Assembly: GCA_965208905.1 (NCBI GenBank)
Contig: OZ242365.1
Location: 224,001-288,000 of the forward strand
Length of the DNA: 64,000 nt
From: Nitrosopumilaceae archaeon
GTDB taxonomy: Archaea > Thermoproteota > Nitrososphaeria > Nitrososphaerales > Nitrosopumilaceae
Reading direction: 5' to 3'
Position numbers and translations under genes: made by a program. Position 1 is the first letter of the stretch; the number at the start of each line of letters is the position of its first letter. Under the pieces are notes generated by a model. That model made no database searches. It had not been told where the DNA came from and saw nothing but the letters and a program-made list of their open reading frames with translations. Of the stretch, positions 17,170 through 36,013 are shown one piece after another.

Positions 17170-17290
17170 CATTATCAAAGATGTTTGTAATGTATGAATG
17201 AAATTTACATATTTACAAGACCGCCATCGACCAGGCGTCAGCACACATAAAATAACAAATCTGTCATAGAGTTTTAATATAGACAAAAAA

Positions 17291-18457: not shown

Positions 18458-18458
18458 A

Positions 18459-18824: not shown

Positions 18825-18855
18825 CTTTATAAAATGATAAAGGATCATTCCTTGT

Positions 18856-19041: not shown

Positions 19042-19191
19042 CATGTGATATAATGGGCCATACATCTCATACACCACACAAGATATCGGCTACATCTAAG
19101 GAATCATCATTTTCTAATGTTATAATAATCACCAATCTCTACAAAATGAGTAGAACCTAACTATTAATTACAACTTTGATGTAACCAGTCC

Positions 19192-21090
19192 ATGGATAAG
19201 TGGGTTGGCGATATGTTTGAAGAGCCAGAGAACGAGTCGGTCATGCCAACCCGGGTCAAAAAGATCTTTTCAGCCATGGACAGTCCCCAGAGATTGAGAA
19301 TTCTTAGGGCACTAAACTCAAAAGGTCCGCTCAGTTATTCAGAGCTTAAAAGACTTGCCGGCTTTCATCCCAAAAGTGAGAGTGGTAAGTTCGCATATCA
19401 TCTGCGCAGCTTGGACAATCCGGGTCTGGTATTGTTGGACAAAAATACCAAACGGTACGACATTACTAATCTAGGAAAGATGTCCATAAGTCTGGTAAAA
19501 CAGATAGAAGAAAAGTCCATTCATGAGTCCAGTCGAATGTACGTGAGAACATCTCATCAGGCCATAGAAGAGTTTAACGCAGATAAGATAATGCGATCCT
19601 TGGTACGTGAGGGGAGTATGCCCATGGATCTTGCGCAGCGCATCACCGAAGAGACGGAGAACCGCATATACAAGTATCAGACATCTCATCTTACAGGGCC
19701 TCTAATTCGAGAGTTGGTGAATGCCGTACTTTTGGAGGGCGGACATGAAGGCTATAGGAGCAAGATGGCCCGGTTGGGCATTCCCGTGCATGATCTACAA
19801 GAGATGCTGACAGATGTCGATAGCGTGATGGCCGGTTTAGAACACATAATGCTAACTGCAGGGCGGCGGGTATTTGTAGAGTATCTACTAACTAATACAT
19901 TGCAGCGAGATGTGGCAGACATGTATCTGTCAGGTGGCATTCACATATCAAATCTGGCTTTATGGCCACTGGCACCAGATACAATATTTCTGAATATCAA
20001 CGACATCATACCGCAGAGTGACATAAAGATATCAAGTCTAGTCAAGATGCTCAACCATGTATTGTGGGAGGCATCCAGTGAAGTTGTAATAGATGGCATA
20101 TCCAATATCGACTCAATATCGCAGTATATGGCAGACACTCTCATCATGATGCACGCACCCCACGGTGCGGCCCACCTGTCACTATATGTACCATTGAACT
20201 CAAAGTCCATACATGGCATATTAGAGGCGTACAAGACCTATGTCAAAAGTGTGGACACTCCCACAGCAGGGCTTGTCATAGATACAAAAGATACCAAGAT
20301 TGCAGAATTTTCAGACATATTATCAGATATTATAAAATGTAACGGAGTCATAACTATTACCAAACAAAAGTCTGGTAAAAGTGGTATCATAGACAGTAAC
20401 GATAAGGGGGCATCAGCAAAGATGCACTCGCTGGCCATAAATCTGCCTAGTTTGGCTTACGAGTCAGAGGGTGATGAGGCGTACTTTCGGGCAAAGTTAG
20501 CAATGAGTATGGAACCCATAATATCAGCATTGGAGTCAAGACGAAAGGATATTGCCGACATTACACGTTGGGGGCTTAATCCGATTCTTGCAGAGAACAT
20601 CATAAAGCAAGAGAAAAGGTCTGTAAATATCACTATCAATTTAGTGGGAATGCATGAGGCCATGACTCACATTTTAGGAGACGATTACCCGCCCAAAATG
20701 GTGCTCAAAGTATTAGAGACTGCCAACCATGTTGTATCAAAGATTAGTGGTAAGACAGGTCTCCCCATACTGATATCCATGATACATGCAGATGGCATCT
20801 CCCGTCTGGTGGAATTAGACGCAAAGAAGTACGGTAAAGACAAGGTGTATAATATGCAGGATGGTAGATATCAGCACGGTGTCAGTATAGATGTACGTCA
20901 GACCATAATACCAGGACAACTAGATCGCATAATATCAAATGCAAAGAAGGCTGCTGCTGTTTTGGGTGGAGGCCTGTACACCGAATTGTCATACCAAAAG
21001 AGTACGCCGCAGTCAGATATCATACGTGGAATAGAGTTGTTATCAGATCATCTCAACTTTACAGTAAAGCTCAAACACGACTCATCTTAA
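19192..21090 (+). CDS. ArsR-type HTH + ATP-cone + degenerate NrdD-like protein
   Basis: RLRILRAL..SYSELK..GKFAYHL wHTH; VRTS..EEFNADKI ATP cone; INL motifs of the class III RNR fold. Confidence 0.75.
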   Translation: MDKWVGDMFEEPENESVMPTRVKKIFSAMDSPQRLRILRALNSKGPLSYSELKRLAGFHPKSESGKFAYHLRSLDNPGLVLLDKNTKRYDITNLGKMSISLVKQIEEKSIHESSRMYVRTSHQAIEEFNADKIMRSLVREGSMPMDLAQRITEETENRIYKYQTSHLTGPLIRELVNAVLLEGGHEGYRSKMARLGIPVHDLQEMLTDVDSVMAGLEHIMLTAGRRVFVEYLLTNTLQRDVADMYLSGGIHISNLALWPLAPDTIFLNINDIIPQSDIKISSLVKMLNHVLWEASSEVVIDGISNIDSISQYMADTLIMMHAPHGAAHLSLYVPLNSKSIHGILEAYKTYVKSVDTPTAGLVIDTKDTKIAEFSDILSDIIKCNGVITITKQKSGKSGIIDSNDKGASAKMHSLAINLPSLAYESEGDEAYFRAKLAMSMEPIISALESRRKDIADITRWGLNPILAENIIKQEKRSVNITINLVGMHEAMTHILGDDYPPKMVLKVLETANHVVSKISGKTGLPILISMIHADGISRLVELDAKKYGKDKVYNMQDGRYQHGVSIDVRQTIIPGQLDRIISNAKKAAAVLGGGLYTELSYQKSTPQSDIIRGIELLSDHLNFTVKLKHDSS

Positions 21091-21340
21091 AGTCGCGGCG
21101 AGGCTGCTGAAGAGACAGTAGTATCTGTTTTAACTGCTCATCAGTGACAGGGGGACTCAGACGGCCCTGAGTCATCATGGAAAGTAGATAATTTTCGACC
21201 TGTGTGGCCAAATCTGGTCGGACCATGCGAACATTGCCCAATCGTAGACGTGACTCGGGATTAAGGATTCGACGTAATAGTGCATCTTTTTGTGCAGCAG
21301 CTTCATTGGCCTGTTCATCATTAAATTCAGGAGTGCTCAT
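21071..21340 (-). CDS. PDCD5-like DNA-binding protein
   Basis: ILNPESRLRLGNVRMVRPDLA..VE motif; follows rps19e. Confidence 0.88.
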   Translation of the reverse strand: MSTPEFNDEQANEAAAQKDALLRRILNPESRLRLGNVRMVRPDLATQVENYLLSMMTQGRLSPPVTDEQLKQILLSLQQPRRDFKMSRV

Positions 21341-21342
21341 AT

Positions 21343-21795
21343 CTACATGTATACCCGAAGTTTGGGATTCTCCTGTACCATCTCTTTGAGTATGTCAGTG
21401 GATAGATTGTCTAACTTTTTCATGCCTGCAGAGGTTACGACACGTCCCCTCTTATCTATCGCCTCTACCAAGCCCAACTTCTCCAAACCATGTACGGCAT
21501 TGCGAATTATGGCACCACCACCAGCGCGGTGATGTGCGGCTCCATATCCAGACGGCTTTCCGCCTCCGTACTCTTTGCGCAACCTGCTAATTCCAACAGG
21601 GCCCTCCAAGTATATCTTGCGCAGAATAGATGCGCAACGGGTGTACCACCAGTCTTTTTGATGGGGCGGTCTGTCAGCATGTACTCCAGTCTTTACAAAT
21701 ATCGTCCATTCGGGCTTCTCTATACCACTATCCTGCAGGTATTGTGCTGTACGTGTGATGAGCTCGTGTGGCGGTACATCATATACTTTTGCCAT
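21343..21795 (-). CDS. rps19e: 30S ribosomal protein S19e
   Basis: VKTG, WWYTRCASILRKIY, YGG. Confidence 0.95.
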   Translation of the reverse strand: MAKVYDVPPHELITRTAQYLQDSGIEKPEWTIFVKTGVHADRPPHQKDWWYTRCASILRKIYLEGPVGISRLRKEYGGGKPSGYGAAHHRAGGGAIIRNAVHGLEKLGLVEAIDKRGRVVTSAGMKKLDNLSTDILKEMVQENPKLRVYM

Positions 21796-22008
21796 ATTTT
21801 TTTATTTTCTTGTCTATTTATAAATCATAATTGAGCAGAAGAGCGTTTTATAATTTATCACCTTGGTCAACACCACCTAACTTTCAACGTATCAAAGTCA
21901 TACAAGTTGTGATGACGTAATAGATATCTCTTGATTATGCGCACTCCCCTAGGACACATCTTTGTATATGAAGACAGGTATATAATTCCCCCATACACCA
22001 CATGTACA

Positions 22009-22512
22009 GTGTATATTGTATCTGTGTTGTTGTGTATTTGTATTATATTGGTAGCAGGAGATGCATATGCGCACTCTCTATTCAACTCTGCTGAAGAGTT
22101 CTATGGTGGATATAGGGTACAAGTAGCAACAACTCCTGAATTTCCCCAGATAGACGAGATCTCGACAATTCTAATCCGTGTGACAGACGAAGACTTTGAG
22201 GAGGTTGATAGCTTCACCATGGGTCTGCGATTCTTTTATAATGATCTACAAGTAGATGCTGTGCCGCCCCAGAGCCACCAGGGAGGACACTGGGATATCG
22301 ACTACATCTGGAAGAAAGAGGGAAATCACATAGTGATGGTGGATATGTATAGTGTGAATGGAGATAGCACAGACATATTGACATATACGTTCAACATGGG
22401 AACTCAGAGTCCGTTTGGATATATCTTCATATCCGCCATAACCGTGGGCGCCCTTACATTTACAGGAATAATGACATACATCTATCTTCCAAAGATACTG
22501 CGGCGCCGTTGA
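22009..22512 (+). CDS. hypothetical secreted/membrane-anchored protein
   Basis: Signal peptide ending AYAH; C-terminal TM helix plus basic tail; start uncertain. Confidence 0.7.
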   Translation: MYIVSVLLCICIILVAGDAYAHSLFNSAEEFYGGYRVQVATTPEFPQIDEISTILIRVTDEDFEEVDSFTMGLRFFYNDLQVDAVPPQSHQGGHWDIDYIWKKEGNHIVMVDMYSVNGDSTDILTYTFNMGTQSPFGYIFISAITVGALTFTGIMTYIYLPKILRRR

Positions 22513-22673
22513 ATTTGGCATTTCTGTATAGACAGCCCAAGTATCATCTATAGTATAGAAGGAGTATACGTTAATGTCCAAAGGCATACACCATACAGAA
22601 TAGTTGGATGCCTGTGACGGTTGGCTGCTTACCACCCTACCTATATGATATCATAGTACAGTAGTTTCAAGAG

Positions 22674-23117
22674 TTATGTGTGCGCAGGCATCTCTATCTT
22701 TGATATGCGAAACGCAAAGAGGGTGGTTAATAGCACCATTGAAAACAACAGTATGCCTATACCCAGATGTATGGCGACTAGTACGGCGTGCAGATTCATA
22801 TCGATTACCAAGGCACCTAGTGTTATCTGAGTAACAACAAAGGCGGATGCCAAAGAGCTGGTCAGTTTTATCTTCAGGTCGGCACGCTTGTTCATGTATG
22901 ATGCGACCATTGTAGCAAGTACCAATGCACCCGTAGTGGCAGCTATCAGGCGATGCACCCATTCTATGAGATACTCTTCAGATGGCATCACGCCATTAGG
23001 ACACAGTGGCCACTCCGGGCAGGTCAAGCCCAAGCCAGCAGCAGAGATGTACCCGCCAATAAACATCAGCGAATAGAGTACTATCATTGTACATAATGCT
23101 AGATACTGTATAGCCAA
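22674..23117 (-). CDS. ctaA: heme A synthase (short COX15/CtaA family)
   Basis: GLTCPEWPLC, EWVHR, HLG; lies in the cox cluster. Confidence 0.88.
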   Translation of the reverse strand: MAIQYLALCTMIVLYSLMFIGGYISAAGLGLTCPEWPLCPNGVMPSEEYLIEWVHRLIAATTGALVLATMVASYMNKRADLKIKLTSSLASAFVVTQITLGALVIDMNLHAVLVAIHLGIGILLFSMVLLTTLFAFRISKIEMPAHT

Positions 23118-23121
23118 GATA

Positions 23122-24072
23122 CTATTCCACTATGAAGGTCCCTTGCATGCCTTGTAGTGCATGGCCAGGAACTGTACATATGTAATAGTAGGTTCCAGGC
23201 GTATCTGCCACAAAGTTTACCTGACCGCTCTGACCTCCAGTCAGGGGTATATTTGCGGAACCTATTGCAGAGTCCCACATTATGGAATTAAAGTTTGCGG
23301 GATCCCGTACTATCGCAAATGAATGGAACGATATTCCTTGGTTTGTAGAAGAGATATTCACCTCATCTCCAGCGGTTACACGAATTTCAGGGTTTGCTCC
23401 TTCTGTACCGGGAACAGCAGAGAATGCAAACGTCAAAAAGTCATCGGACTCGTAAAAGTCCAGTGTAAAGTCATGGACAGTTCCAGTGGGCTCTACGGCA
23501 GATTCCTCTTGGCCGGCCGCACCAACAATTATCTCACCTACCATTCCCTGTTCGCGGTGACCAGGAACAGTACAGAGATAGTAGTAAGTACCTTCGCTAG
23601 GTGGTATGAACTCGGATGTGCCTGACTGGCCGTTTGTTAGGGGGTTCATTGCAGTTCCTATCTCAGAGCCTGGAAATATTCCTTCAGTACCACTCTCTTC
23701 GGCAGTAACACCAAAGGAGTGAAATGATATACCCTCACTGACTACGTTGAACACAATCTTGTCGCCTACTTGAGCGTTGATCGTCGGATTTGCGCCAGGT
23801 TCACCTAGTACCTCATTAAATGAAAAGTCTCTAAAGTCTGCAGACTCTACAAATACCAGATCTACCGTAAGTAGACTGCCGGTGAAGGAGCCCAACTCTT
23901 GCTCAACGGCCTCGCTCATTATTGCCACTATGGGAGGAGCTTCAGATATCCAATAGTCCCATAGTCCAAAGAATATACCGCCACCAGATATGCAGATGCC
24001 CAGCATTATGGCCATCATCTTGGCGGTCCTAGCAGGACTCGTTCTCATTATTGGTGTGTCTTCATTTACCAT
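23122..24072 (-). CDS. membrane-anchored di-domain blue (type 1) copper protein
   Basis: Two HSF...YYxCTVPGH..GM sites and an N-terminal TM helix. Confidence 0.88.
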   Translation of the reverse strand: MVNEDTPIMRTSPARTAKMMAIMLGICISGGGIFFGLWDYWISEAPPIVAIMSEAVEQELGSFTGSLLTVDLVFVESADFRDFSFNEVLGEPGANPTINAQVGDKIVFNVVSEGISFHSFGVTAEESGTEGIFPGSEIGTAMNPLTNGQSGTSEFIPPSEGTYYYLCTVPGHREQGMVGEIIVGAAGQEESAVEPTGTVHDFTLDFYESDDFLTFAFSAVPGTEGANPEIRVTAGDEVNISSTNQGISFHSFAIVRDPANFNSIMWDSAIGSANIPLTGGQSGQVNFVADTPGTYYYICTVPGHALQGMQGTFIVE

Positions 24073-24082
24073 ATCTTATCAC

Positions 24083-25609
24083 CTAATGATGTGGGTTCTT
24101 TTGGGTATGCGGATAGTAGTAGCGGCCACCCAACCCAAATGGATCCTCCATATTTGCCTCTGGTCCTTTTGCAGAACTATATATCATATTACCCAACCAA
24201 ATGGCCATGCTGATTCCAATGAGCATGGCGCCAACTGTAGCTATCTGATTCATGGCAATCCACTCAGGTATAGGTGGATAGTCGTATATGCGTCTGGGCA
24301 TTCCGTATAGTCCTAGTACATGTTGTGTAAAGAATACCATTACAGTTCCTATCATGGCCAACACAAAGTGTATCTTGCCCAATACTTCGTGATACATACG
24401 GCCAGTCACGTATGGGAACATGTAGTATACATATCCTATTGTGCCAAATGCAATAGTTCCCATTACAAAGAGATGGAAGTGGCCCACCACCCAATAAGAG
24501 TCGTGCGTAACAAAGTCCAAGGGCATGGCGCTGTTTACCACACCACCAGCTCCAGCCGAGAAGAAGAGTGCAATTCCACCTACAGCCCACATCATGGGTG
24601 TGGAGAATCGTATACGACCACCCCACATGGTAGCGAGGAAGTTAAAGACATGCATTGCCGATGCTGGAACCGCCGCCAGTGTACCCACCATAAAGACAGT
24701 CTTCTCTGTGAATGACATGCCAGTGGCATACATGTGGTGCGCCCAAGACGAGAATCCCACTATGGCCAGTATTATAAAGGCGGCCAGTCCTGAGGCATGA
24801 CTAAAGATGGGTTTGCGGGAGAAGCGAGGGATTATCTCATACATCATGCCTATGGCAGGTATGACCAGTACATACACTTCAGGGTGGAATGTAAACCAAA
24901 AGAGGTGTGCGTATGCGATGGGGTCGCCACCCATGGCAGGATTAAAGAATCCCGAGACGCCCAACCTGTCTGTAAGCAACATAAGTAGTGCAGCAGCAAA
25001 TGTTGGGAGTGCCACTAGTATTATCAAGGATGATGAGAGAAATGACCATGCCAATAACGGAACCTGACCTAGCGACATGTCTGGGTGTTTGCACTTCATT
25101 ATAGTTACAACAAAGTTGATGGCTCCCAGTATGGAGGAGACTCCCAGTATCTTTAGGCCGAATATCCACATGTCTGCGGCAGGACCTGGTGCGCTGATTA
25201 TAGAGTAGGGTGGCGTGGCATACCAAGTAAAGTCGGCAAACCCTAGCCATATCAAGGCCCCTCCTGGAGGAATCATCCAAAAGGCTATGGCGTTTAGTTT
25301 TGGATACGCCATATCCTTGTAGCGTACCATTATTGGAACAAAGTAGTTTCCCACCGCCGATGCCGAAGGCAATATGAACAGAAATATCAATGTGGTGCCG
25401 TGTACTGTAAACATACGGTTGAACGTCATGGAGTCGGCGATAATCTGTGAGCCCGGAAAGAAGAGCTCCGCTCGGATGGCCAGCGCCAATGCGCCTCCCA
25501 AAAACAGAAATCCCAAAGACATTATCAGGTATAGAAGGCCCACATCTGTGTGGTGTGTTGAGAACATTATCTGCCAGATGGGTCGTGGTTTGTGCAGTTC
25601 CAGTACCAT
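24083..25609 (-). CDS. coxA: heme-copper oxidase subunit I
   Basis: TVHG, WFTFHPEVY, WAHH, HFH. Confidence 0.95.
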   Translation of the reverse strand: MVLELHKPRPIWQIMFSTHHTDVGLLYLIMSLGFLFLGGALALAIRAELFFPGSQIIADSMTFNRMFTVHGTTLIFLFILPSASAVGNYFVPIMVRYKDMAYPKLNAIAFWMIPPGGALIWLGFADFTWYATPPYSIISAPGPAADMWIFGLKILGVSSILGAINFVVTIMKCKHPDMSLGQVPLLAWSFLSSSLIILVALPTFAAALLMLLTDRLGVSGFFNPAMGGDPIAYAHLFWFTFHPEVYVLVIPAIGMMYEIIPRFSRKPIFSHASGLAAFIILAIVGFSSWAHHMYATGMSFTEKTVFMVGTLAAVPASAMHVFNFLATMWGGRIRFSTPMMWAVGGIALFFSAGAGGVVNSAMPLDFVTHDSYWVVGHFHLFVMGTIAFGTIGYVYYMFPYVTGRMYHEVLGKIHFVLAMIGTVMVFFTQHVLGLYGMPRRIYDYPPIPEWIAMNQIATVGAMLIGISMAIWLGNMIYSSAKGPEANMEDPFGLGGRYYYPHTQKNPHH

Positions 25610-25645
25610 GTTATGTAATCCCTCCATGCACGGTTAAAATTCTTT

Positions 25646-26077
25646 TCAAGATGGGTCCTCCACGTATAGTTTTCCTCGCATGTTATAGTGAATTAGACCG
25701 CAGTATTCACGGCACTGAATATCGTACTCCCCAGCTTCGGTGGGAGAGAACCATACAGTGTTAATACGACCAGGCACGGCATCCAACAACACCACATAAT
25801 CATGTATGTTAAATGAGTGATTTACATCAGTCGATGTTATCTCAAATTTGTACGCCTTGCCGGTCTCCAGATGTAGTTCGCCCACCTCCTTTGTACCATC
25901 TTCATGCTCAAATGTCCAGAACCACTGCTGGCCGACCACTTTAATTATCTCAGCGTCTTCGGGTACATGCTCCACCAATCGCTCCACATTCCAGGCTTCA
26001 GCTCCCACCCAACAGAGTAGAGCTACCACGACTCCTATGTACACCCACTCAGGCCAGCTAGAATGTTCATCAGACAT
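25646..26077 (-). CDS. coxB: heme-copper oxidase subunit II, CuA domain
   Basis: GQQWFW, DVNHSF, CREYCGLIHYNM. Confidence 0.92.
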   Translation of the reverse strand: MSDEHSSWPEWVYIGVVVALLCWVGAEAWNVERLVEHVPEDAEIIKVVGQQWFWTFEHEDGTKEVGELHLETGKAYKFEITSTDVNHSFNIHDYVVLLDAVPGRINTVWFSPTEAGEYDIQCREYCGLIHYNMRGKLYVEDPS

Positions 26078-26078
26078 A

Positions 26079-26330
26079 CTACCAATCAGTCCCCTCATAT
26101 TTGGTTGGTTTTGCATTTGGGTGAGACTCTCTGAATCTCCATATCAGCCATATTATTGTACCAGATACAACAGCCCCTATTGTAATTGCAACCACCATCA
26201 TTCTAAAGAATAGATTCCATATCTCAACACGACGATCAAGATACTCGCCGGGTTCGGCGGTGGCAGCAAACGCCACATTAACTGTAAACATAACCGCCAT
26301 CATAACTAAAGCTCCAATAATGTATCGCAT
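26079..26330 (-). CDS. small membrane protein resembling the N-terminal TM part of oxidase subunit II
   Basis: IWNLF..TM..WRFRESHP; directly upstream of coxB. Confidence 0.7.
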   Translation of the reverse strand: MRYIIGALVMMAVMFTVNVAFAATAEPGEYLDRRVEIWNLFFRMMVVAITIGAVVSGTIIWLIWRFRESHPNAKPTKYEGTDW

Positions 26331-26374
26331 TCCCTATTCACGATTCTATTAGGAATTCTATTTAATGGTTTACA

Positions 26375-26549
26375 GGGGTATGTCCTACTAGTATAAAGCT
26401 CCCGGAGTTTCCCCCGGCGACCTTATATCAGTAGCATAATTGGATACATCCAGGCGGTCGTCCAGAGATGGTGACTCATCACCCACATAAAGCAAGCTCC
26501 TCGCCTCCCCTTTAGGCCGCCGCCCTTCACCGTCGCATGGAAACCACAA
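26375..26549 (-). repeat. ~175-bp dispersed repeat, copy A
   Basis: Reverse complement aligns with 61949-62122 (shared GACGGTGAAGGGCGGC, GATGAGTCA.CATCTCTGGA, TTTATACTAGT). Confidence 0.85.
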
Positions 26550-26694
26550 GACGATACAGTCCAACAATTGTTGAACGCACTGCTCCCAATCCCAGTCTTA
26601 GTCATGGGCTGTGACGTTATCTGCGCGTGTCCCAAGACAGCGCGTTTGACAACCCGTCGTATAGTTGAGTAGACAAATCTCCTGAATACACCGC

Positions 26695-26701
26695 TTAAAT
26701 A
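26695..26701 (+). promoter_or_regulatory. putative TATA box of tnpB-2
   Basis: TTAAATA 21 nt upstream of ATG 26723. Confidence 0.5.
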
Positions 26702-26722
26702 CCACCGAACTCATTGTATAAT

Positions 26723-28021
26723 ATGAAGTACAAAGACGAAAAGTACGTCATAAAGACTCTACAGTACCGTCTTAAGATATCCACCAGACTCACTCGATAC
26801 TTTAACTCAATGTATTCGGAATCCCACATATGGCTCAATGCAGGAATAAGGGCGCGTAAGGCTGGACTGACGGTGTTTGACACCAATAAGATAGCCACTA
26901 TATGCCAGACCATCCCCCAGGCCTGGGTTCGCGGCGCCATACGTGAAGGCCACAAGATAGAAGGCTGTACGCATGTAAGATATGGTAGGAAGGTTTACCC
27001 CCTGTTTAGTAACGTGCCACTCGGTAAAAAATCCAAAGGTACAACGGTGTATTTCCCAAGATGTAATATACCATTCAAACTACAGAAAGGGCATCTACCC
27101 AATACATCCCAATCATATAAGATAGTGGATGTCACGAACACTACAGACAAGGAGAGGCAGTTCGAACTACATGTAACTATACGTGAGCATGTCCCGGACC
27201 GCGTAGCGACGGGTGTACATGCTGGTATTGATATGGGTGGTAAGCACACGCTTGTTGTTGGAAAGTCCGATGGTAGTATTGCCATGCTGACATTACGTGA
27301 GAAGGATACTATACGGAACATAGCGCGTATGCAAAAGAAGATGAGTAGGTGCAAACTTCACTCCCGCAAGTGGCGCAACCTGCATGATACATTAAACAGC
27401 ATATACCGTAAGTTGGGAAATAGACAGAAAGACAAGCTGCGCAAGTTCTCAAAGAAACTAATGCGGCAGTGTGATAGAATAATCATGGAGGGGATGAACC
27501 TCCGTACAATGACGACCAAGGGTCCCGGGCAGACGCCCAAAAATCGTACGATGCGACAAAGTCATTGTGGTGAGGCGCGGGAGCACATTTCACAACAATA
27601 CCTACGATATAATGTAGAATATACGGAGATAAACCCAAAGAATACCTCAAAGCAGTGCTGTATGTGCGGTAGTTTGAATACGTGGCGCAAGAGCAGTAAG
27701 TTTAGGTGTCATAACTGCGGTATAGTGTGTCATGCGGACATCAATGCGGCATTCAACATACTTTTCGCTTTTCGTATTATACAGTGGAGTAAGCGCGCTC
27801 AGGGCGTTTATTCCCTACAAAACAAGGCTGGAATGGTCTTGAGAGGAAAGATACATCTCGCGACACTTACTATACCCAGTGTCGTTGGTGATGTGATGGC
27901 CGGTACAGGCTGTCACCAGGCTAGGCGTCAAAACCCGGCTGACAATGAACGTCTCTTGGAAACTCCTCTGGATGGTAATTTGCCAACATTTGTTGTACTG
28001 GGCGCAGGCCCAACTGTATAG
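26723..28021 (+). CDS. tnpB: TnpB RNA-guided nuclease
   Basis: RuvC-I AGIDMG, RuvC-II IIMEGMN, TSKQCCMCG...FRCHNCG Zn finger, RuvC-III HADINAAFNI. Confidence 0.9.
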   Translation: MKYKDEKYVIKTLQYRLKISTRLTRYFNSMYSESHIWLNAGIRARKAGLTVFDTNKIATICQTIPQAWVRGAIREGHKIEGCTHVRYGRKVYPLFSNVPLGKKSKGTTVYFPRCNIPFKLQKGHLPNTSQSYKIVDVTNTTDKERQFELHVTIREHVPDRVATGVHAGIDMGGKHTLVVGKSDGSIAMLTLREKDTIRNIARMQKKMSRCKLHSRKWRNLHDTLNSIYRKLGNRQKDKLRKFSKKLMRQCDRIIMEGMNLRTMTTKGPGQTPKNRTMRQSHCGEAREHISQQYLRYNVEYTEINPKNTSKQCCMCGSLNTWRKSSKFRCHNCGIVCHADINAAFNILFAFRIIQWSKRAQGVYSLQNKAGMVLRGKIHLATLTIPSVVGDVMAGTGCHQARRQNPADNERLLETPLDGNLPTFVVLGAGPTV

Positions 28022-28290
28022 CAGCTGTATTGAGTACGCGCATGTATGGACACGCGCAGATAACGTCACAGCCCACTTGGTCATATGACATGAGTCTATA
28101 AGATGCCTTGTGGCTTTGCAGTACTTTGGTGAAGTGTTATTAACTATTTTGCTTCATTGGTTGTCAAAGATGAGGTGTGCAGCCAAATGCTCTATACGTA
28201 ACAGTACAACAGACAAAATAACAGATAGTTTAGAGGATACCTTTGTACAACAAAGAGACTACATCTACAATACCAACGAGTTGCCCTAGA

Positions 28291-29130
28291 ATGATAAACC
28301 TACTGGATGTGGTAAGATGGACATTCAGGCGTAGTCCATCAGATATAATACGACTCTACAACTCCCTCTCAGGAGTCATGGTCACAGCCACTGGAGGGGC
28401 CAGCCTCAACTTTGGACTGTGGTCGGACGACTGTGTTGAACCACTCTTGGCGCAGGACAATATGGCGCGACACTTTGGCAGGATGGCAGACTTGGATACG
28501 GCCAGTGTCGGGGCGGATGTTGGTTGTGGGCGGGGCGGACCTGCTAAAATATGGCAACAGTTGTATCCTGACTTTGATATAATAGGAGTAGACGTAAACC
28601 GTAGAGGTCTAGTAGAGGCCAAGCGTCTGGACCTTGCAGTCAATGCACTCTCTACTAGTCTACCTCTAGCCAATAACTCGATGGATCGTGTGCTTGCACT
28701 AGAGTCTGCGCAACATTTTCGTCCACTGTCAGTATTCACCAATGAAGCTGCCCGCGTATTGAAGCCTGGCGGCATACTATGTATGGCCATACCAGTCGTC
28801 GGACGACAGTACCACATAAGCCGATTGGGAATGCTTTGGTTGACATGGACATCTGAGCATTACAATGTATCGACCATACATGAGGCAATCAAAGCATCTG
28901 GGCTCCATATACAATATGAAGAGATGGTTGGTCCCATGGTGTATCTGCCGATGGCCAACTACTATATGAATAACAGAGACAGATTACAGGAGAGAATCAC
29001 AGCCACATATCCTAGATATGTAGAGTCAATACTGTATCGCTCCATACTAGACATGAGGCGGGCTTCCACACAGGATGTTATTGAGTATATGATTATAAAA
29101 TGTATAAAGCCATCACATGAGCGTATATGA
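28291..29130 (+). CDS. class I SAM-dependent methyltransferase (sterol/tocopherol MT-like)
   Basis: LNFGLW, DVGCGRGG, LESAQHF, RVLKPGG. Confidence 0.85.
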   Translation: MINLLDVVRWTFRRSPSDIIRLYNSLSGVMVTATGGASLNFGLWSDDCVEPLLAQDNMARHFGRMADLDTASVGADVGCGRGGPAKIWQQLYPDFDIIGVDVNRRGLVEAKRLDLAVNALSTSLPLANNSMDRVLALESAQHFRPLSVFTNEAARVLKPGGILCMAIPVVGRQYHISRLGMLWLTWTSEHYNVSTIHEAIKASGLHIQYEEMVGPMVYLPMANYYMNNRDRLQERITATYPRYVESILYRSILDMRRASTQDVIEYMIIKCIKPSHERI

Positions 29131-29158
29131 GACTATCCGCATAACGGGGAACCACACA

Positions 29159-29794
29159 TCACCATAGTTTTATCAGGCGTGAAGGCTCCATGACGTTTAT
29201 GCCGCCCACGGAGAATATACCCTCGCTATTCAAAAATATATTCAATGATGCGTTGGCTATGATCAGGTGATATAGATTTTGAGGCGTCATGTTCAGTATG
29301 GTAGACAGCATGGCCTTGATGGGATCCATATGTGTGACTAATAGTACATTCTCGCCGGCATGTTTCTGTTGTATATAAGATACAATGTCAAGTATTCTGT
29401 TACGGACGCTTGCAAATGTTTCGACGCCCATATTTGTAAAATCATCAGATCCCTGATAGAAGTGTAGAAATATGTTCCCGTATCGTTCCATCAAATCGTC
29501 ATACGTCTTACCGGTAAGTCCACCCATGTCTATCTCTGTAAGTCTATCGTCCGGAATAACCTCCAATGAGTTGTGTTTGGCGACAATTTGCGCAGTCTCC
29601 ATGGTCCTCTGTATGGGACTAGAGTATATGCGGCTAACCTGCATGTCCGCGACACATGCAGCAGCATACGCTGCTTGAGCCTTGCCCTCAGCAGTGAGGG
29701 GTACATTCGGCAGGCGTCCCACAAGCCGTCGTTCAACATTGTTCTGAGCCTGGCCATGACGTAGGAATATCAACGAGGCCAACAGTATAGCCAT
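29159..29794 (-). CDS. histidine phosphatase (phosphoglycerate mutase family)
   Basis: RHGQ, SSP..RT.ETA, VTH. Confidence 0.9.
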   Translation of the reverse strand: MAILLASLIFLRHGQAQNNVERRLVGRLPNVPLTAEGKAQAAYAAACVADMQVSRIYSSPIQRTMETAQIVAKHNSLEVIPDDRLTEIDMGGLTGKTYDDLMERYGNIFLHFYQGSDDFTNMGVETFASVRNRILDIVSYIQQKHAGENVLLVTHMDPIKAMLSTILNMTPQNLYHLIIANASLNIFLNSEGIFSVGGINVMEPSRLIKLW

Positions 29795-29834
29795 ACTATA
29801 AAGATAATAAGAACATTCACTATGACATTACATA

Positions 29835-30506
29835 TTGAAGGTGGGAATAGTTGGTGGGACCGGAGGTATGGGTAAAGGGTTTGCCATGAGATGGTGTAAG
29901 AGTCATGACGTTTTAGTGGGATCGCGAAATGCCCAGAGGGCATCAGAGAGTGCTGCCACCTATGAGAGTGATGCCATAGAGGTATACGGCAGCATACAAG
30001 GAACCATAACTGGTAGCGACAACCTATCAATAGCATCAGATAGCGATGTATTACTACTATCCATTGGGTATGAAAATATTGACTCTACCTGCCCAGATGT
30101 CTTGAATAATATCAAAGATGACTGCATAGTGGTATCGCCCATAGTACCCATGGAGAAGACAGATGTGGGGTTTGAGTTTATTCCATTTCGTGACAACAAA
30201 CAGTTTGCCCATCAGATGGTACAGAGTCACATGAAGGACCCCTCTAGATTGGTGTCGGCGTTTCATGTCATATCAGAGAAGAAACTGGCCAACCTCAAAA
30301 GAGAGTTAGACTATGACATATTCGTATGTGGTGATGACAAAGGGGCCGTGGATGTTGTAAATGGTCTGATAAATGAGATTGATGGACTTCGTCCACTATA
30401 CATAGGGGGTAGCGGATTGTCATATATGGTAGAGATATCCACGCCCATACTACTAAACATAATGATTCAGAACAGAATTAAAAATCCAGGGATTAAAATA
30501 GTCTAG
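29835..30506 (+). CDS. npdG: F420-dependent NADP oxidoreductase
   Basis: GGTGGMGKG, GSR, VSAFH, CGDD. Confidence 0.85.
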   Translation: MKVGIVGGTGGMGKGFAMRWCKSHDVLVGSRNAQRASESAATYESDAIEVYGSIQGTITGSDNLSIASDSDVLLLSIGYENIDSTCPDVLNNIKDDCIVVSPIVPMEKTDVGFEFIPFRDNKQFAHQMVQSHMKDPSRLVSAFHVISEKKLANLKRELDYDIFVCGDDKGAVDVVNGLINEIDGLRPLYIGGSGLSYMVEISTPILLNIMIQNRIKNPGIKIV

Positions 30507-30740
30507 ATGAGTCCTGAATATTATAGGCGCGGACGTAACTGGTATACAGCGTTAGGTGTACTGTTTATAGTATCAGCCATCATAGTTATAGTACGGCAGA
30601 TAGCGCTATGGGGGTTTGAGTTTGTGGGGGACTTTATGTTGAATAGTGAATTTACCAATGAAAAGATATCTCTAGGTATGATAGGTTTTGGATGTCTCAT
30701 GATAATCTTGGGGTTGCGGCGTAATGTCCCGGCGCGTTGA
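30507..30740 (+). CDS. hypothetical 2-TM membrane protein
   Basis: Abuts neighbours in the operon; two hydrophobic helices. Confidence 0.65.
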   Translation: MSPEYYRRGRNWYTALGVLFIVSAIIVIVRQIALWGFEFVGDFMLNSEFTNEKISLGMIGFGCLMIILGLRRNVPAR

Positions 30741-31119
30741 CTTTCTCCAGCACCAAAAGATCATGAGGCTGGCTACCACAAATGAGCATGGTGAGCCGCA
30801 CGTAGTACCTGTGTGGTATATGTACGATGATAATACCATATACATAGGAACCAATACACGAACTGTAAAAGCAAGAAATGTAAAACATACAAAGACTGCT
30901 GCCTTCTGTGTAGATGAAGGGGTACGGGCACCCATATATGGCATAATGGGAAGAGGGTCTGCACGATTAATCTTAGACCCCACACAGGTGGGTAATTTGG
31001 CAGAACAGATACTGATGCGATACTATACAGATATACACCAAGAGGCAGCTCAGGCTCTATACAAGGATACAGACTGTATTATTGCCATACGTGTGGACTC
31101 TATCACCGAATGGTCATAA
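30724..31119 (+). CDS. pyridoxamine 5'-phosphate oxidase-like (FMN/F420-binding) protein
   Basis: LAT...G.PHVVPVWY, K.RN. Confidence 0.85.
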   Translation: MSRRVDFLQHQKIMRLATTNEHGEPHVVPVWYMYDDNTIYIGTNTRTVKARNVKHTKTAAFCVDEGVRAPIYGIMGRGSARLILDPTQVGNLAEQILMRYYTDIHQEAAQALYKDTDCIIAIRVDSITEWS

Positions 31120-32281
31120 AATCTTCAATCTTGTCTAGTGCGGAATTTAGTGTCGATATAGGGGGCAGAAATACCAGCCGGAAATGTTCCCTGCCAAATG
31201 CCTCTCCAAATCCAGACCCATGCACGGTTAGTACACCTTTTTGACGGAGCAGCTCCAACACAAACTCTTTGTCTGAACTATACGGGTTGTCATCTATGTG
31301 TGGAAATACATAGAATGCGCCCTTAACAGGAGGACAGGTCAAATTCGGGATGGAGTTCAGACGTTTCACCATCAGGTCTCGGCGGCGACTCATCTCAGCT
31401 ACAAACTTGTCGATATAATCCTGAGGGCCCCGCAGTGATTCAAGGGCCGCATATTGAGCGGGCATGTTGGCGGCTATGCGCACCCTAGTCAGCTGAGGCA
31501 GATATTTCTTTATATTGTGTAGTTGTGGCGAGTCGGCAAACGCAATATAGCCTAGGCGCCACCCGGTCATCAAGTTTACCTTTGAGAAGCCGTTCAGTAG
31601 AATCACTGGTGAGTCTTTGGCTACTCTACCAATGCTGGTGAACTCATCATCGTACGTTATACGATCATATATTTCATCACATATCACGTATAGATTATGC
31701 TCGTTGGCCACATCTATTATATCTTGTAGTGATTTACGATCATACACCATACCGGTGGGATTGTTCGGGTTTATCAGACAGACTGCTACTGTCTTAGGTG
31801 TTATCTTTGAGCGCATATCCTCAATGTCGGGCCTACCAGCAGCAAGATCGACACCAAACTCTACAGGCGTACCGCCGTGTAGCTTAACATATGAAGAGTA
31901 TGGTGGATAGTATGGGCCAGGCAACAGAACCTCATCGCCGGACTCCACTATGGAGGCGGTCACCATATCCAGTGCTTCGGATATGCCGTTTGTCACGATT
32001 ATACCATCTGATGATGTTTGCAGGCCTTTGGATCTCTCTTTTTCAGCTATGGCATCACGTAGTGGTTTAAGGCCTTCGGAGGGTGCATAAAAGTTGTTGC
32101 CGTTTCTGATGGCATCAATATGCGCATTTATCACATTTTCAGGCGGCTGAAATCCGTATTGGGGCGGATCTCCGACATTAAGATATTGTACTTGGATGCC
32201 ACGCTTCTCGACCTCTCTGGCGCTAAGCACTATATCCCGTATGGCATACTCCACACCCTTGACCTTGCTTGAGACTTTCAT
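31103..32281 (-). CDS. class I/II aminotransferase (alanine aminotransferase-like)
   Basis: YAIR, LNVGDP, INPNNPTG, DEIYD, SK...TGWRLG. Confidence 0.9.
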   Translation of the reverse strand: MKVSSKVKGVEYAIRDIVLSAREVEKRGIQVQYLNVGDPPQYGFQPPENVINAHIDAIRNGNNFYAPSEGLKPLRDAIAEKERSKGLQTSSDGIIVTNGISEALDMVTASIVESGDEVLLPGPYYPPYSSYVKLHGGTPVEFGVDLAAGRPDIEDMRSKITPKTVAVCLINPNNPTGMVYDRKSLQDIIDVANEHNLYVICDEIYDRITYDDEFTSIGRVAKDSPVILLNGFSKVNLMTGWRLGYIAFADSPQLHNIKKYLPQLTRVRIAANMPAQYAALESLRGPQDYIDKFVAEMSRRRDLMVKRLNSIPNLTCPPVKGAFYVFPHIDDNPYSSDKEFVLELLRQKGVLTVHGSGFGEAFGREHFRLVFLPPISTLNSALDKIEDFMTIR

Positions 32282-32324
32282 TGTAACAGGACAAATATTT
32301 AGCGGGGTTAATTAATTAACTGTT

Positions 32325-32399
32325 GGACCCGTAGCACAGTCTGGATAGTGCGGGCGGCTTCGGACCGCCAGGTCGGGGGATCGAAGCCCTCCGGGCCCT
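32325..32399 (+). tRNA. tRNA-Arg(TCG)
   Basis: GGCGG-CTTCGGA-CCGCC anticodon arm, GCAC/GTGC D-stem; one A.C mismatch in the acceptor stem. Confidence 0.88.
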
Positions 32400-32526
32400 C
32401 TGTGCATTTAACATTGCCGAATTGACGTAGATCCAAGTCATGTAAACGGCTCTACTGTGAAAATGCAGTCATTTTGAATTGTGAGTGCGAAGAATGGTCA
32501 GCCTATCAAGAATAGTTATGTTATCT

Positions 32527-34698
32527 TCATTTATTTTGCTCTTTTTTTGTTCTCAGTTTGGCGCAGTCCCGAACCACCATGGCTAACAGTAATGCCCTAT
32601 CTATAAGAGAGTCTCGTAGTATGTATTCGTCTGGACTTTTAAATCCGGCACCCAGAGGACCTAGTCCCTCCAATGATGGAATGGTGGTGGGCACATGACT
32701 GATATCTGATGATACAAAACGCCTTGTTGGTTTTATTGGAATGTTTACCTTCTTAGCAGCCTCTTCCACCATAGAGTATAGTTCATGTGTAACGTCTGTT
32801 TCAAGTACAGGATCCCTCCTCCGCCACCGCGAGACATCAACTCTGGCCCCGTTACCATCACGTTTCAGTACGCGACGAATCTTCTTCTCTATATCATCAC
32901 CCATCTCAAAGCTGTCATAGCTGGTAACAACGGTTATCGATGCTTTATCAGGTGAGTTGCCGTACGAGGTGTTTGCTTGTAGTGTGGGAACCATAACCCG
33001 GCATCCTTCTGTGGATAGTTTATCCAACGATACTACCTTTTTGCAGGCGTACGGAATTAAACCCGAGATTGTTGGTCTGGTGTCATCTTTTACATCACGT
33101 ATCTCTATGTGATAGTCGTCCCGGCCATGACCAGATACTGCCACTCCACCATCAACATCGCCCCACTTCATGCTCAAAATGTAACGTGAACGAGAAGCAT
33201 AGTCACGTATCAGATTTGCCGAGTGTTTTCCGTCCAGTGAGTCATCTGTGGTGAGCAGTATGCCGCACCGTATACGGCGAAGCCTCTTGGTAAAGCGTAG
33301 TGCCTGTAGTGCCGAGAGCATCACTGCCAGACCGCCCTTGCTCTCAGTTATACCTGTACCGTATATCTTTGTCTTGGTCTCATGAAATGGTGTGTGATCA
33401 TGAGATGTGTATGGTGTATCTAGATGGCTTAGAATCAGCACATCATTGTCAGGATGTATGTGATTTGCAAAGTAGCGTACATCACCTATATCTAAAAAGT
33501 GGTGTATATGTTCGGCAAATCCCAGATGCTCTAGCCGTTTTGACATCATCTTACCTAAGCGATTTACAGTCTCCACATCCCTAACATCGGTGTTCATATC
33601 CAGCATGTGGCGGAGGAGTTGTGTCGTGGTTTCGAGGTGGGTGCGCAAGTAGCTACGTGCCACTGTATGTAGTGGCTGGCCCGACGATGCAATGAGGGGG
33701 CGGGCGGCGGACTCGCCAAAGTTTCGTATGGCGGCCACATCCAGCATCTTGTTTATCAGTGACTCATAAGAGTATCCCGCTGCAACTGCACCGGCCACAA
33801 ACGAGCCGGTCTTTCCCAAGCTGGCCATGGAGTTCAGCTCCAATATGTACATGTTACCGTCTTGGTCCATACGTATGTCCACGCGGGTATAGTCGTGCAG
33901 TCCCAGTTTTTTAAAGGCCTCTTGGCACAGTTCTTTCATCTCCTGTGTGGTGTCATCATCAAGGGGTGCCGGACACAGCTTGCGTCTTGGTGCAGACATC
34001 TTGTCGGATTTGGTCTGTATATCATCAGGACCATTCATCGCAAACTCTACTATGGGAAATGTCTCTAAGTGGTGTCCATTTCCCACCATACCCACGGCAA
34101 ATTCCCTTCCGGATACGAACTGTTCTACTAGAGCATCCTGTTGGTATTTGTCAATCTCTTCTCGTACTGCATCTCTGAGATCATCGTGGTTGTCGACAAC
34201 TCTCGTACCCATGGATGTAGACTCCATCTTTGGTTTCACTATGACAGGAAACTTCAGATCATCAAATGTGTCATCAGGGGTTGAAAATACCCAATAGTCG
34301 GCGGTGGGCAGATTGTTCTTTTGTAGGACGATTTTAGTCATTACTTTGTCTTGCACTATTGCGTGCGCCTCAGGCCCCGAACCTGTATAGGGAACGCCCA
34401 GCATCTCAAGCATGGCAGGCAGGTGCGTATATCTGTCATGTCCCTGTACACCATACGCCATATTAAAGACAATTCCTGGCGGCTCCCCAGCTGCAGGTTT
34501 TGCCATGAATTGATGCAACTCCTCCATTGAACTCATGGTTCCTTCTATTATCTTGACTGTGTGACCCCCACGCTCAAGTGCGGTAGCCACCTGCTCTATG
34601 GTCTTGGGGTTGTAGTGCTCTTTGGTGGTCATGCCGTATATGTTGATCACATCGGTGGGATCGATATTCTTTTTGTTGTATATTACGGCTACCTTCAC
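32527..34698 (-). CDS. D-Ala-D-Ala ligase-like ATP-grasp domain fused to an M20 peptidase-like domain
   Basis: LEMLGVPYTGSG, DK..TK, FPVIVKP, GREF, RVDIR, LELN; C-terminal SHLDT, G...SKGG, GLGPLG. Confidence 0.85.
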   Translation of the reverse strand: MKVAVIYNKKNIDPTDVINIYGMTTKEHYNPKTIEQVATALERGGHTVKIIEGTMSSMEELHQFMAKPAAGEPPGIVFNMAYGVQGHDRYTHLPAMLEMLGVPYTGSGPEAHAIVQDKVMTKIVLQKNNLPTADYWVFSTPDDTFDDLKFPVIVKPKMESTSMGTRVVDNHDDLRDAVREEIDKYQQDALVEQFVSGREFAVGMVGNGHHLETFPIVEFAMNGPDDIQTKSDKMSAPRRKLCPAPLDDDTTQEMKELCQEAFKKLGLHDYTRVDIRMDQDGNMYILELNSMASLGKTGSFVAGAVAAGYSYESLINKMLDVAAIRNFGESAARPLIASSGQPLHTVARSYLRTHLETTTQLLRHMLDMNTDVRDVETVNRLGKMMSKRLEHLGFAEHIHHFLDIGDVRYFANHIHPDNDVLILSHLDTPYTSHDHTPFHETKTKIYGTGITESKGGLAVMLSALQALRFTKRLRRIRCGILLTTDDSLDGKHSANLIRDYASRSRYILSMKWGDVDGGVAVSGHGRDDYHIEIRDVKDDTRPTISGLIPYACKKVVSLDKLSTEGCRVMVPTLQANTSYGNSPDKASITVVTSYDSFEMGDDIEKKIRRVLKRDGNGARVDVSRWRRRDPVLETDVTHELYSMVEEAAKKVNIPIKPTRRFVSSDISHVPTTIPSLEGLGPLGAGFKSPDEYILRDSLIDRALLLAMVVRDCAKLRTKKEQNK

Positions 34699-34739
34699 AA
34701 TATGTAATAGCAAAAAATGTTTTTAATATTATAATAGAT

Positions 34740-34771
34740 GGTTCCTCCCGCAAAGTCGGGCGATTACACCC
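34740..34771 (+). repeat. third copy of the element-1 right end (TIR plus inner TACACCC)
   Basis: GGTTCCTCCCGCAAAGTCGGGCGATTACACCC versus rc(17138-17169) GGTTCCTCCCGCAAAGTCGGGTGATTACACCC: one mismatch. Confidence 0.92.
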
Positions 34772-34976
34772 AGATAATGTGATGTCGCGCCGCAGCTTCA
34801 GTTGGCCGCTACACGCCTTGGGGCCGAGCTTTTCCAAACTGGCTACCCCTATGTTAGCCCCAGCATTACAGTCAGCGTGATCCGAGTGGCCGCACCGCTG
34901 CACCAGAGCTCCCTACCGTCCCGGTTGTCCTTGTGGATGCACCCACACGGACATCAACGCTGGCTGGTGTAAGCTA
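34764..34976 (-). pseudogene. tnpB: tnpB 3' remnant
   Basis: Minus strand reads AYTSQR*CPCGCIHKDNRDGRELWC, frameshift, QRCGHSDHADCNAGANI (Zn finger plus RuvC-III). Confidence 0.8.
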
Positions 34977-35117
34977 CCATGACCCAAATGATACCACCGA
35001 TACGCTGGTAAGATAGCAGAAGAGCCAGTAACCCCAGCATTGCTCGGGTATCTACTTGTTGAGTCCGGATTTTCGACTCAAGATTATAATAACATCACAC
35101 AATACAAGAGATTAGTA

Positions 35118-35369
35118 ATGCCTGGTATAGGATTAATGAAACGGCGATTAGAGAAAGAGAGTGATGCCATAGCTTTGGCCGTATCGGGTGTCGTAAAAAA
35201 ATACAACATAGAGCCCACTCAGCCAAAGACGCTAGAGACCAAGTATCATACAGATGCTGGAGATTGGTATGTAGCTTTAGGTTGGGACAAGATGCGAGTG
35301 GTAATAAAGATGGACTCTGTATTGGCGCAGATCACCGAAATCAAAGAGATTCCATGGAGCGATGTATAA
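35118..35369 (+). CDS. conserved hypothetical protein
   Basis: Clean ORF MPGIGLMKRRLEKE...; stop overlaps the next ATG. Confidence 0.7.
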   Translation: MPGIGLMKRRLEKESDAIALAVSGVVKKYNIEPTQPKTLETKYHTDAGDWYVALGWDKMRVVIKMDSVLAQITEIKEIPWSDV

Positions 35370-36013
35370 TGAAGGCCATAGTTATGGGCGGTACTAGAGG
35401 GATTGGTAACGCCATAGCAAACTCACTACAACGGTATGGCCACCAGGTCATATCAGTGGGGCATCACGATGTAGACACTTCAGATATAGGCTCTGTAAGG
35501 CAATTCATACATAATAATCCAGATACAGATATTCTGGTATTAAACACAGGAGGACCGCCGCCCAAAAAGTATAACGATGTAACAGAGCAAGAGTGGCAAA
35601 AGTATCACAACCAGTTGTTTTTGAGTTTTGTACTGATACTACAGAGCATAAAAGTAAACAAGGGCGGCTATATCTTTCTGATAAGCTCATCTGTCGTAAA
35701 GGAACCCAATCCGAATCTGGCCATATCAAGTGCTTATAGGGCAGCATTTGTAGAGATATTCAAGCTGGCCAGTCGGGAACTAGCTACACAAAACATCAGC
35801 TGCATCAATATAGCTCCGGGTCTGATATCTACGGATCGCACACTAGAGATAATGAAAGATATGGAGGCAGACATATCATCCCTTCCCATGGGACGTATGG
35901 GTAGACCTTCAGAGATTGGCGACTTTGTGGGAGCCATAGTAGAGAAGCAGATAAAGTATCTGTCAGGTGTGACTGTTACATTTGATGGGGCTAGTTCAGC
36001 CCACATATTCTAG
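35369..36013 (+). CDS. short-chain dehydrogenase/reductase
   Basis: GGTRGIG, LNTGGP, IAPG...TDR. Confidence 0.88.
   Translation: MKAIVMGGTRGIGNAIANSLQRYGHQVISVGHHDVDTSDIGSVRQFIHNNPDTDILVLNTGGPPPKKYNDVTEQEWQKYHNQLFLSFVLILQSIKVNKGGYIFLISSSVVKEPNPNLAISSAYRAAFVEIFKLASRELATQNISCINIAPGLISTDRTLEIMKDMEADISSLPMGRMGRPSEIGDFVGAIVEKQIKYLSGVTVTFDGASSAHIF

Follow-up and report, generated by a model that had tools for sequence, protein, structure and literature searches.

A tnpB fossil probably joined late to a stray repeat end in a Nitrosopumilaceae archaeon, and tnpB genes associated with IS6-like transposon ends

In the genome of a Nitrosopumilaceae archaeon (assembly GCA_965208905.1), tnpB genes appear to ride in IS6-like transposon shells, and a locus where the tip of one such shell abuts a different, decayed tnpB is best read as two dead pieces joined late; as a whole, we hold this explanation to be probable. 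The locus lies at 34740-34976 of the window, which is the entire 64,000-nt stretch analysed (contig OZ242365.1, positions 224,001 to 288,000). A first-pass annotation had interpreted it as cargo swapping, the right end of its element 1 being attached to another tnpB. That interpretation fails at this place: the orthologous locus of genome G005 holds the same fossil without an inverted repeat, and the junction is secondary. Neither piece is functional now, the locus being devoid of an intact nuclease, a guide-RNA scaffold and a second repeat. It is a scar, minor in itself; a shared repeat beside a different gene can be a late accident, and a sister genome can expose such a junction. Hereafter, G000 is the genome of the window and G001, G002, G005, G006, G008 and G009 are other genomes of the genus. 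The features of the window concerned are the following:

15554 to 17169, plus strand: element 1, the family-1 reference, with perfect 25-bp inverted repeats at 15554-15578 and 17145-17169
32527 to 34713, minus strand: host gene, an ORF of 728 aa with its start region next to the stray repeat
34740 to 34770, minus strand: family-1 right-end tip, terminal 31 nt, made of the 25-nt inverted repeat and 6 inner bases including GTGTAA
34771 to 35085, minus strand: family-3 tnpB fossil, 3' third, about 97 codons with the zinc ribbon and the RuvC-III motif HADCN
35059 to 35081, no strand: hairpin with a 7-bp stem and a 9-nt loop, at the 5' breakpoint of the fossil
35119 to 35369, plus strand: small host ORF with an AT-rich region upstream that borders the fossil at its 5' breakpoint

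Positions 34740-34771 (plus strand) are identical to the right end of element 1 (17138-17169, minus strand) at 31 of 32 positions, with one mismatch; 100 dinucleotide-preserving shuffles gave no such match (chance expectation 0). The same 31/32 agreement is found at five other family-1 right ends of G000. The G at 34771 is common to tip and fossil, hence the match length of 32 nt, and directly outside the tip, at 34739, starts the host flank ATCTATTATAAT shared with G005. As first described, the stray repeat is joined to TnpB-like coding sequence on the minus strand in the relative orientation seen in element 1, and no left inverted repeat is present at the locus. The peptides YTSQR*CPCG and RCGHSDHADCNAGANI were both confirmed at the remnant, in two different frames. 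Its sequence is indeed unlike the tnpB of element 1, whose protein gives no tblastn match here at E<=1e-3.

TnpB homology extends further than initially stated, from about 35081-35085 down to 34789 (about 97 codons). In tblastx comparisons the remnant matches the family-2 copies of G000 with a summed E of 3e-34 and 56-71% amino acid identity. The search for an intact homologue, which had been proposed as a check, found the nearest ones in G001 and G006 (76% nucleotide identity over 287 nt), here named family 3. Homology of the remnant to genuine tnpB genes is clear from tblastx and from this nucleotide match; in the HMM search the longest stop-free piece reaches 13 bits on PF07282, under the cut-off of 26.3. 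An intact family-2 copy serving as its relative scores 52.1 bits on PF07282 and 37.8 bits on PF01385. The fossil is 5'-truncated and an intact reading frame was not found in it: the C-terminal codons left are interrupted by an in-frame TGA (34954-34956) and by two frameshifts, single-base deletions near 35035 and 34899. It is collinear with intact family 3 up to ...GCTGCGGCGCGACATCACAT, after which come the last bases of a family-1 end, and the block of about 170 nt that is conserved in families 2 and 3 as a putative guide-RNA scaffold is absent. The hairpin TTGAGTC-n9-GACTCAA pointed out by the first-pass annotation is present at 35059-35081 and is nothing special: the window has 68 hairpins with 3-12-nt loops, six of them equal to it in stem and loop length (7 bp and 9 nt). 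One of its arms belongs to TnpB coding sequence that intact relatives also conserve, and its stem has one mismatch in the G005 orthologue. We judge it a chance feature.

The comparison with G005 dates the junction. Its orthologous locus is 95.8% identical to G000 over the fossil and 97.9% over the flank (140 nt), with the same 5' breakpoint, no indel within the fossil, and an identical stop and identical frameshifts; the small host ORF at 35119-35369 adjoins the fossil there too. The two genomes agree up to ...CATTATCTG. Beyond this point G005 continues with CCTTGCCGGC..., in register with intact family 3, and about 100 more nt separate this from the flank ATCTATTATAAT, whereas G000 has only GGTGTAATCGCCCGACTTTGCGGGAGGAACC between CATTATCTG and ATCTATTATAAT. 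The stretch in register is short, with a local score of 27 (shuffles averaged 18 and reached 29), so that its weight lies in the register and not in the score. The tip has no counterpart in G005 (bases 541-571 of the query, window positions 34200-35700, are unmatched), repeat-like sequence was not found at the G005 orthologous locus, and the 114-nt segment of G005 was not found in the G000 genome. Family 1 itself, at more than 77% amino acid identity, was not found in G005, where the best matches reach 33-46% identity; at that threshold it occurs in two of ten genomes of the genus, G000 and, in decayed form, G008.

Since G005 has the fossil without the repeat and family 1 was not found there, we privilege a late origin of the junction by insertion and deletion. 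By the time of the last ancestor that G000 and G005 share, the fossil was already cut at both ends and had acquired its stop and its two frameshifts. After the split from G005, a family-1 element would have inserted just downstream of it in the same orientation, and a single deletion of about 1.7 kb would then have removed the rest of this element together with about 114 nt of intervening DNA, fusing the tip to the fossil. This is the simplest history and we consider it highly probable. An allele with an intact family-1 element at this place was not seen in the genomes compared. If the stray end marks an insertion with the duplication ATCTATTA, the preceding two bases in G005 are CA and not the TA discussed below. 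Another truncated family-1-like tnpB piece, covering the zinc-ribbon region, is fused directly to a repeat at genome positions 347579-347715, and internal deletions close to the repeat, as at that site and at the flagged locus, may be recurrent. The family-1 copies of G000 differ mutually by about 10% in DNA, while the family was not found in G005, where the flanks are 91-98% identical; they may have entered on more than one occasion after diversifying elsewhere.

The remnant could instead be a genuine third type of element that natively ends in an element-1-type repeat (GGGTGTAATC[A/G]CCCGACTTTGCGGGAGGAACC) and carries a different tnpB as cargo. Such a reading accounts for the relative orientation of tnpB 3' end and repeat, and repeat cores have been swapped between families elsewhere, the left core of three family-1 copies being of family-2 type (AAGGACGGG) and the family-2 copy at genome position 808440 having a core of family-1 type, AAAGTCGGG. 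Families 2 and 3 also end in ...TCTGG..GTGTAA ahead of the repeat, which resembles TCTGGGTGTAA of the remnant. However, past the G000 junction the fossil of G005 has more of family 3's own 3' sequence in place of the repeat, family 1 is not found in that genome, and the family-1 terminal sequence occurs at none of the 23 correctly placed right ends of family-2/3-type elements (27 loci were examined, three others being misplaced and one without the motif). The remnant also has no scaffold block, and a native repeat would imply two events in G005, a deletion that ends precisely at the repeat tip and the replacement of 100 nt, on top of one deletion in G000. We find this quite improbable. Even less credible, to the point of being negligible, is that the 32-nt match reflects chance or a host regulatory palindrome and does not derive from a transposon. 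The repeat does contain a small palindrome, CCCG-n6-CGGG, but the shuffles returned no match, the 48 related repeat copies of G000 pair at 1.6-kb spacing around tnpB genes, and the sequence is absent from the orthologous G005 site.

The notion that one family of terminal repeats bounds several divergent tnpB genes does not apply to the flagged locus but holds genome-wide, with two such families in G000 and more in sister species. Element 1 has the inverted repeats GGTTCCTCCCGCAAAGTCGGGTGAT and a single gene, a 523-aa tnpB at 15574-17145 whose stop codon lies within GTGTAA and whose product scores 28.3 bits on PF07282 (cut-off 26.3). It is flanked by the 8-bp target duplication CATTATCA (15546-15553 and 17170-17177), preceded by TA at 15544-15545, and the corresponding empty site of G005 holds CATTATCA once. 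Family 1 counts 10 full-length copies and about 8 broken or partial relatives in the 2.2-Mb genome of G000, at 84-92% amino acid identity; among its 14 two-ended elements the duplication is a perfect 8-mer in 10, a 9-mer with one mismatch in one, and missing in three. Family 2 has about 10 copies in G000, bounded by the left repeat GGTTCCTCCCGCAAGGACGGG and the right repeat, reverse-complemented, GGTTCCTACTGCAAGCACGGG; four of 10 elements have perfect 8-bp duplications, three have one mismatch and three have none. Intact family-3 elements of G001 and G006 have the repeats GGTTCTTGTGCAAACGCGGGTGTT and duplications of 8-9 bp. The consensus of the G000 repeats that bound the two divergent tnpB families is GGTTCCTCCCGCAA[A/G]G[T/A]CGGG. 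All these elements are 1.5-1.6 kb long with terminal inverted repeats of 21-25 bp, and tnpB is their only gene; they encode no transposase. The family-1 stop codon lies 24 nt from the element end and the family-2 frames end 8-50 nt from it. In every case, in the G000 families as in sister species, the tnpB 3' end faces the end with the GTGTAA motif, and related repeats bound further families in sister species, which bears out the earlier view of a long-standing and diversified association between repeat and tnpB. Within the genus, 8 of 9 other genomes contain the repeat; it is missing from all 31 genomes searched outside the genus, and a reversed-pattern control gave no match.

One of these elements, at genome positions 805876-808440, is a family-2 element split by an integrase-core (rve-type) insertion sequence; the interruption gives rise to an open frame of 388 aa beginning with the TnpB amino terminus, and the left repeat core is of family-1 type. 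A third tnpB element, unrelated to the others, lies in the window at 26606-28075. It has a 435-aa ORF (26714-28021) with 52.3 bits on PF07282, a different inverted repeat of 27-28 bp, GGGCTGTGACGTTATCTGCGCGTGTCC, and a 7/8 flanking repeat. Since this element has a repeat of its own, several repeat families carry tnpB in G000.

A partner with a transposase gene was identified in G009, whose 1.44-kb elements have the same repeats, GGTTCCTCCCGCAAAGACGGG, 8-bp duplications and a gene for a 396-aa transposase. The repeats of G000 match those of this autonomous IS at 20 of 21 core positions. One transposase copy (L014) scores 31.8 bits on PF13610 DDE_Tnp_IS240 (cut-off 27) and a second one (L019) 19.6 bits, under the cut-off; the best plasmid hits of the protein, at 29% identity, 69% coverage and E 9e-22, carry the annotation IS6 family transposase. 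An IS240-type DDE transposase was found for the autonomous partner only. The sole cognate transposase copy of G000, at genome positions 926302-927837, is decayed with five internal stops. A perfect 8-bp duplication flanks 10 of the 12 autonomous copies. Duplications of 9 bp occur at seven elements: one of family 1, three of family 3 and three of G009/G002. Four insertions of G000, two of family 1 and two of family 2, have a clean unoccupied counterpart in G005 that contains a single copy of the 8-mer, direct evidence that 8 bp are duplicated on insertion. Of the seven empty-site look-ups, three gave no clean site: other repeats stand between the flanks at 872692 and 2201020, and at the site for 92955 a different sequence of about 3.4 kb is found in G005. 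For 1677879, G005 lacks the flanks.

Terminal repeats combined with 8-9-bp duplications are those of an IS6-family-like DDE transposon and, on these grounds, the tnpB elements would be non-autonomous and moved by a transposase acting in trans. An intact transposase gene and a tnpB within one pair of ends were not seen in the genomes analysed. The nearest to a joint element are a decayed fused fragment at genome positions 1047821-1048609 and an adjacent pair that shares one outer duplication. In this pair (genome positions 924780-927837; L001 and L045) a family-2 element and a decayed IS6-like transposase element stand tip to tip, 8 bp apart, and are flanked as a whole by the direct repeat TTAAACTC, as if they had moved as one unit.

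With the elements oriented by tnpB, the bases immediately 5' of the duplication, on the side where tnpB starts, form a motif that differs between families. In family 1 it is TA at all 16 left ends (14 two-ended and two solo elements), against a genome TA frequency of 0.070. In family 2 it is TTG in six of 10 cases, TTA in two and TTT in one, the tenth element abutting the decayed IS; the TTG frequency is 0.020. TTG also precedes three of four family-3 elements, TTA three of three elements of a G005 subfamily, and TCA all three G009/G002 elements with 9-bp duplications, while a fourth G009 element with different repeats (L044) has TGT. No conserved base was found past the duplication on the other flank. 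Copies without tnpB served as control: 11 of the 12 transposase-only copies, 10 with perfect 8-bp and one with a perfect 9-bp duplication, were counted, and TA is found in 0/11 of them, or in 1/11 in the other orientation (Fisher test against family 1, p=8e-10); these control copies come from other species and have slightly different repeats. A further set with the same repeats, miniature 163-bp elements at 24 loci, is uninformative as control, an intact duplication being present in two only.

We read the motif as a candidate target-adjacent motif (TAM) of TnpB, putatively TA for family 1 and TTG for family 2, because transposase-only copies have none, genomic contexts are mixed and flanks can be GC-rich right up to the TA. 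Where no element has inserted, the motif would stand immediately ahead of a target consisting of the 8-mer and the right flank. A guide RNA whose transcription passes through the right repeat would match this target, with the duplicated 8 bases first and flank sequence after them. This geometry of motif and duplication would be what an RNA-guided nuclease needs to cut the unoccupied allele.

The motif might be unrelated to the nuclease and reflect instead the insertion machinery or a host core promoter (TATA/BRE) needed for tnpB expression, which we consider unlikely. In favour of such an origin, all 25 insertions examined lie outside called ORFs (>=120 aa), i.e. in AT-rich intergenic DNA. For family 1 the upstream neighbour is divergent in 10 of 16 cases, and its promoter may lie in the flank; the family-2 motif extends to a TATA-like AATATTG, and the conserved TA stands about 30 nt ahead of the tnpB start. 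About 30 nt is the right distance for an archaeal TATA box. However, no more than two or three bases are invariant, several family-1 flanks are GC-rich just upstream (gccgggcgcaTA, gttgggatcaTA, tttttgcgcTA), and the upstream neighbour is co-directional in the other 6/16 cases. The motif is also strictly one-sided, it changes from TA to TTG between tnpB families with nearly the same repeats, and the 11 transposase-only copies of the same repeat family show it in neither orientation.

Unoccupied alleles of G005 (L128, L134, L163, L164) differ from G000 in the motif or the 8-mer at 4/4 sites. Differences between the two genomes affect 7 of 44 positions of motif plus duplication versus 17 of 260 of the flanks, which is not significant (p=0.06). 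One empty allele of G005 has the canonical TTG where the occupied G000 allele has TTA. These allele differences give a weak hint of target-site escape or of change after insertion.

A conserved, structured RNA is predicted to overlap the tnpB 3' end and to extend across the right repeat. In 19 family-2/3-type elements from six genomes, conservation over the 150 nt ahead of the right repeat exceeds that of the preceding coding sequence, across lineages whose proteins are about 60% identical, and the trailing reading frame varies among copies. In a five-helix structure of this block 93.2% of cells pair, versus 40-50% when the partners are slid, and five pairs are altered in both partners. For family 1, conservation peaks in the last 150 nt (mean column identity 0.94-0.96), where the codon-position pattern fades. 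Element 1, one family-2 copy and one family-3 copy had no Rfam match at the E-value threshold. Contigs from RNA libraries (four runs of one study) were compared with positions 15450-35400 of the window; among those listed, metatranscriptome contigs cover 16768-17158 (X3) and 16786-16994 (X2), which indicates presence only and not ends or strand. The remnant is covered by none of the listed pieces, although absence cannot be read from contigs. This coverage is consistent with transcription of the guide-RNA region, without being proof of it. Contigs cover the 3' 400 nt of family-1 elements, variant copies included.

TnpB in IS6-type shells with a one-sided motif is a variant of the already known DDE-associated TnpB elements. 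Six such branches, DDE-1 to DDE-6, with inverted terminal repeats are described in Altae-Tran et al. 2023 (PMC10691335), including solo tnpB genes whose flanking ends are almost the same as those of relatives with a transposase; the main text of that paper names IS630 as partner and has no whole-word occurrence of IS6, IS26 or IS240. There as here, tnpB lies between inverted terminal repeats with its 3' end within 250 bp of the element end, and tnpB elements and transposase-bearing relatives have ends in common. The elements of G000 and its relatives differ from the account given there in their variable 8-9-mer duplication, which places the TAM-like motif outside the duplication. In the available part of a 2026 review (PMC13565253), ISL2, IS630 and IS1031 are given as TnpB partners and DDE transposons are said to gain little from TnpB. 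Our literature searches found no paper linking TnpB with IS6.

For the IS6 family, 8-bp repeats and GG at the tips are characteristic, together with the motifs cTGTt and caaa (Varani et al. 2021, PMC7986276). According to the sections of that article at hand, typical members are about 800 bp long with the transposase only; one member with a passenger gene, ISDsp3, is mentioned there, and TnpB is not. The elements analysed here share with IS6/IS26 the 8-bp target repeats, GG tips, the caaa motif and, in the autonomous partner, the DDE_Tnp_IS240-type transposase. GG tips and GCAAA are present in all variants, and cTGTt in the G009/G002 repeat GGTTCTGTTGCAAAC, with CTCCC in its place in G000. Unlike the IS6 members of that description, they carry tnpB in place of the transposase and some have 9-bp duplications. 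IS6 ends were compared by means of this published description, no clear repeat termini being found for ISCpe7 of a Clostridium perfringens plasmid.

The IS1341 group of IS200/IS605 was also considered. Its elements have in common with those of G000 that tnpB is the only gene, that a guide-RNA-like region lies over its 3' end and that the 5' flank has a T-rich motif. IS200/IS605 elements have neither terminal inverted repeats nor target duplications, as stated in the consulted part of the review (PMC13565253), whereas perfect 25-bp inverted repeats and 8-bp duplications are present here; these rule out membership. Fanzor offers another parallel, as a TnpB-type nuclease that is a passenger in a DDE-type shell with inverted repeats and target duplications. 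The same part of the review reads the fixed duplication of Fanzor hosts (TA, TTAA) as itself belonging to the TAM; in contrast, the elements studied here are archaeal and their variable duplication would belong to the guide-matched target.

About 25 copies or fragments of tnpB-only elements with IS6-type ends and variable 8-bp duplications are found in a genome of 2.2 Mb. TnpB is usually explained as a homing device of IS200/IS605 and IS607, elements that excise without leaving a scar. We put forward tentatively, at somewhat less than even confidence, that TnpB nucleases have colonised IS6-type DDE shells across this archaeal genus, that every copy with tnpB has a family-specific TAM located exactly one duplication away from the left end, that the transposase-only parent has no such bias, and that the nuclease shapes where copies are found. 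If this is true, TnpB either decides which insertions persist, by homing into empty alleles in which the target begins with the duplicated 8-mer, or takes part in the choice of insertion site. It would also link an OMEGA nuclease to a transposon family that is described as replicative and non-excising, in which restorative homing is not expected to help. The tnpB elements with IS6-type ends provide a testable system for how an RNA-guided nuclease aids or steers a classical DDE transposon and a prokaryotic parallel to Fanzor, with a TAM (TA; TTG) and a guide start that can be predicted directly from sequence.

G000 has an unusually heavy TnpB load, with 75 PF07282 matches in 2.2 Mb, most of them in open frames of 400-570 aa. 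It also has 13 transposases that combine SWIM and IS240 domains; they were considered as candidate mobilisers, and the one element of this kind with mapped ends has different repeats, GGAACTGGTGCATC.... This 3.6-kb element, at genome positions 1337697-1341297 with a copy from 1851333, is bounded by inverted repeats of about 50 bp and carries, next to the SWIM-plus-IS240 transposase gene, apparent DNA methyltransferase and nuclease genes. One copy has the 8-mer GTCCGTTG in its left flank and the other has it in its right flank, a pattern that recombination between the two would be expected to leave.
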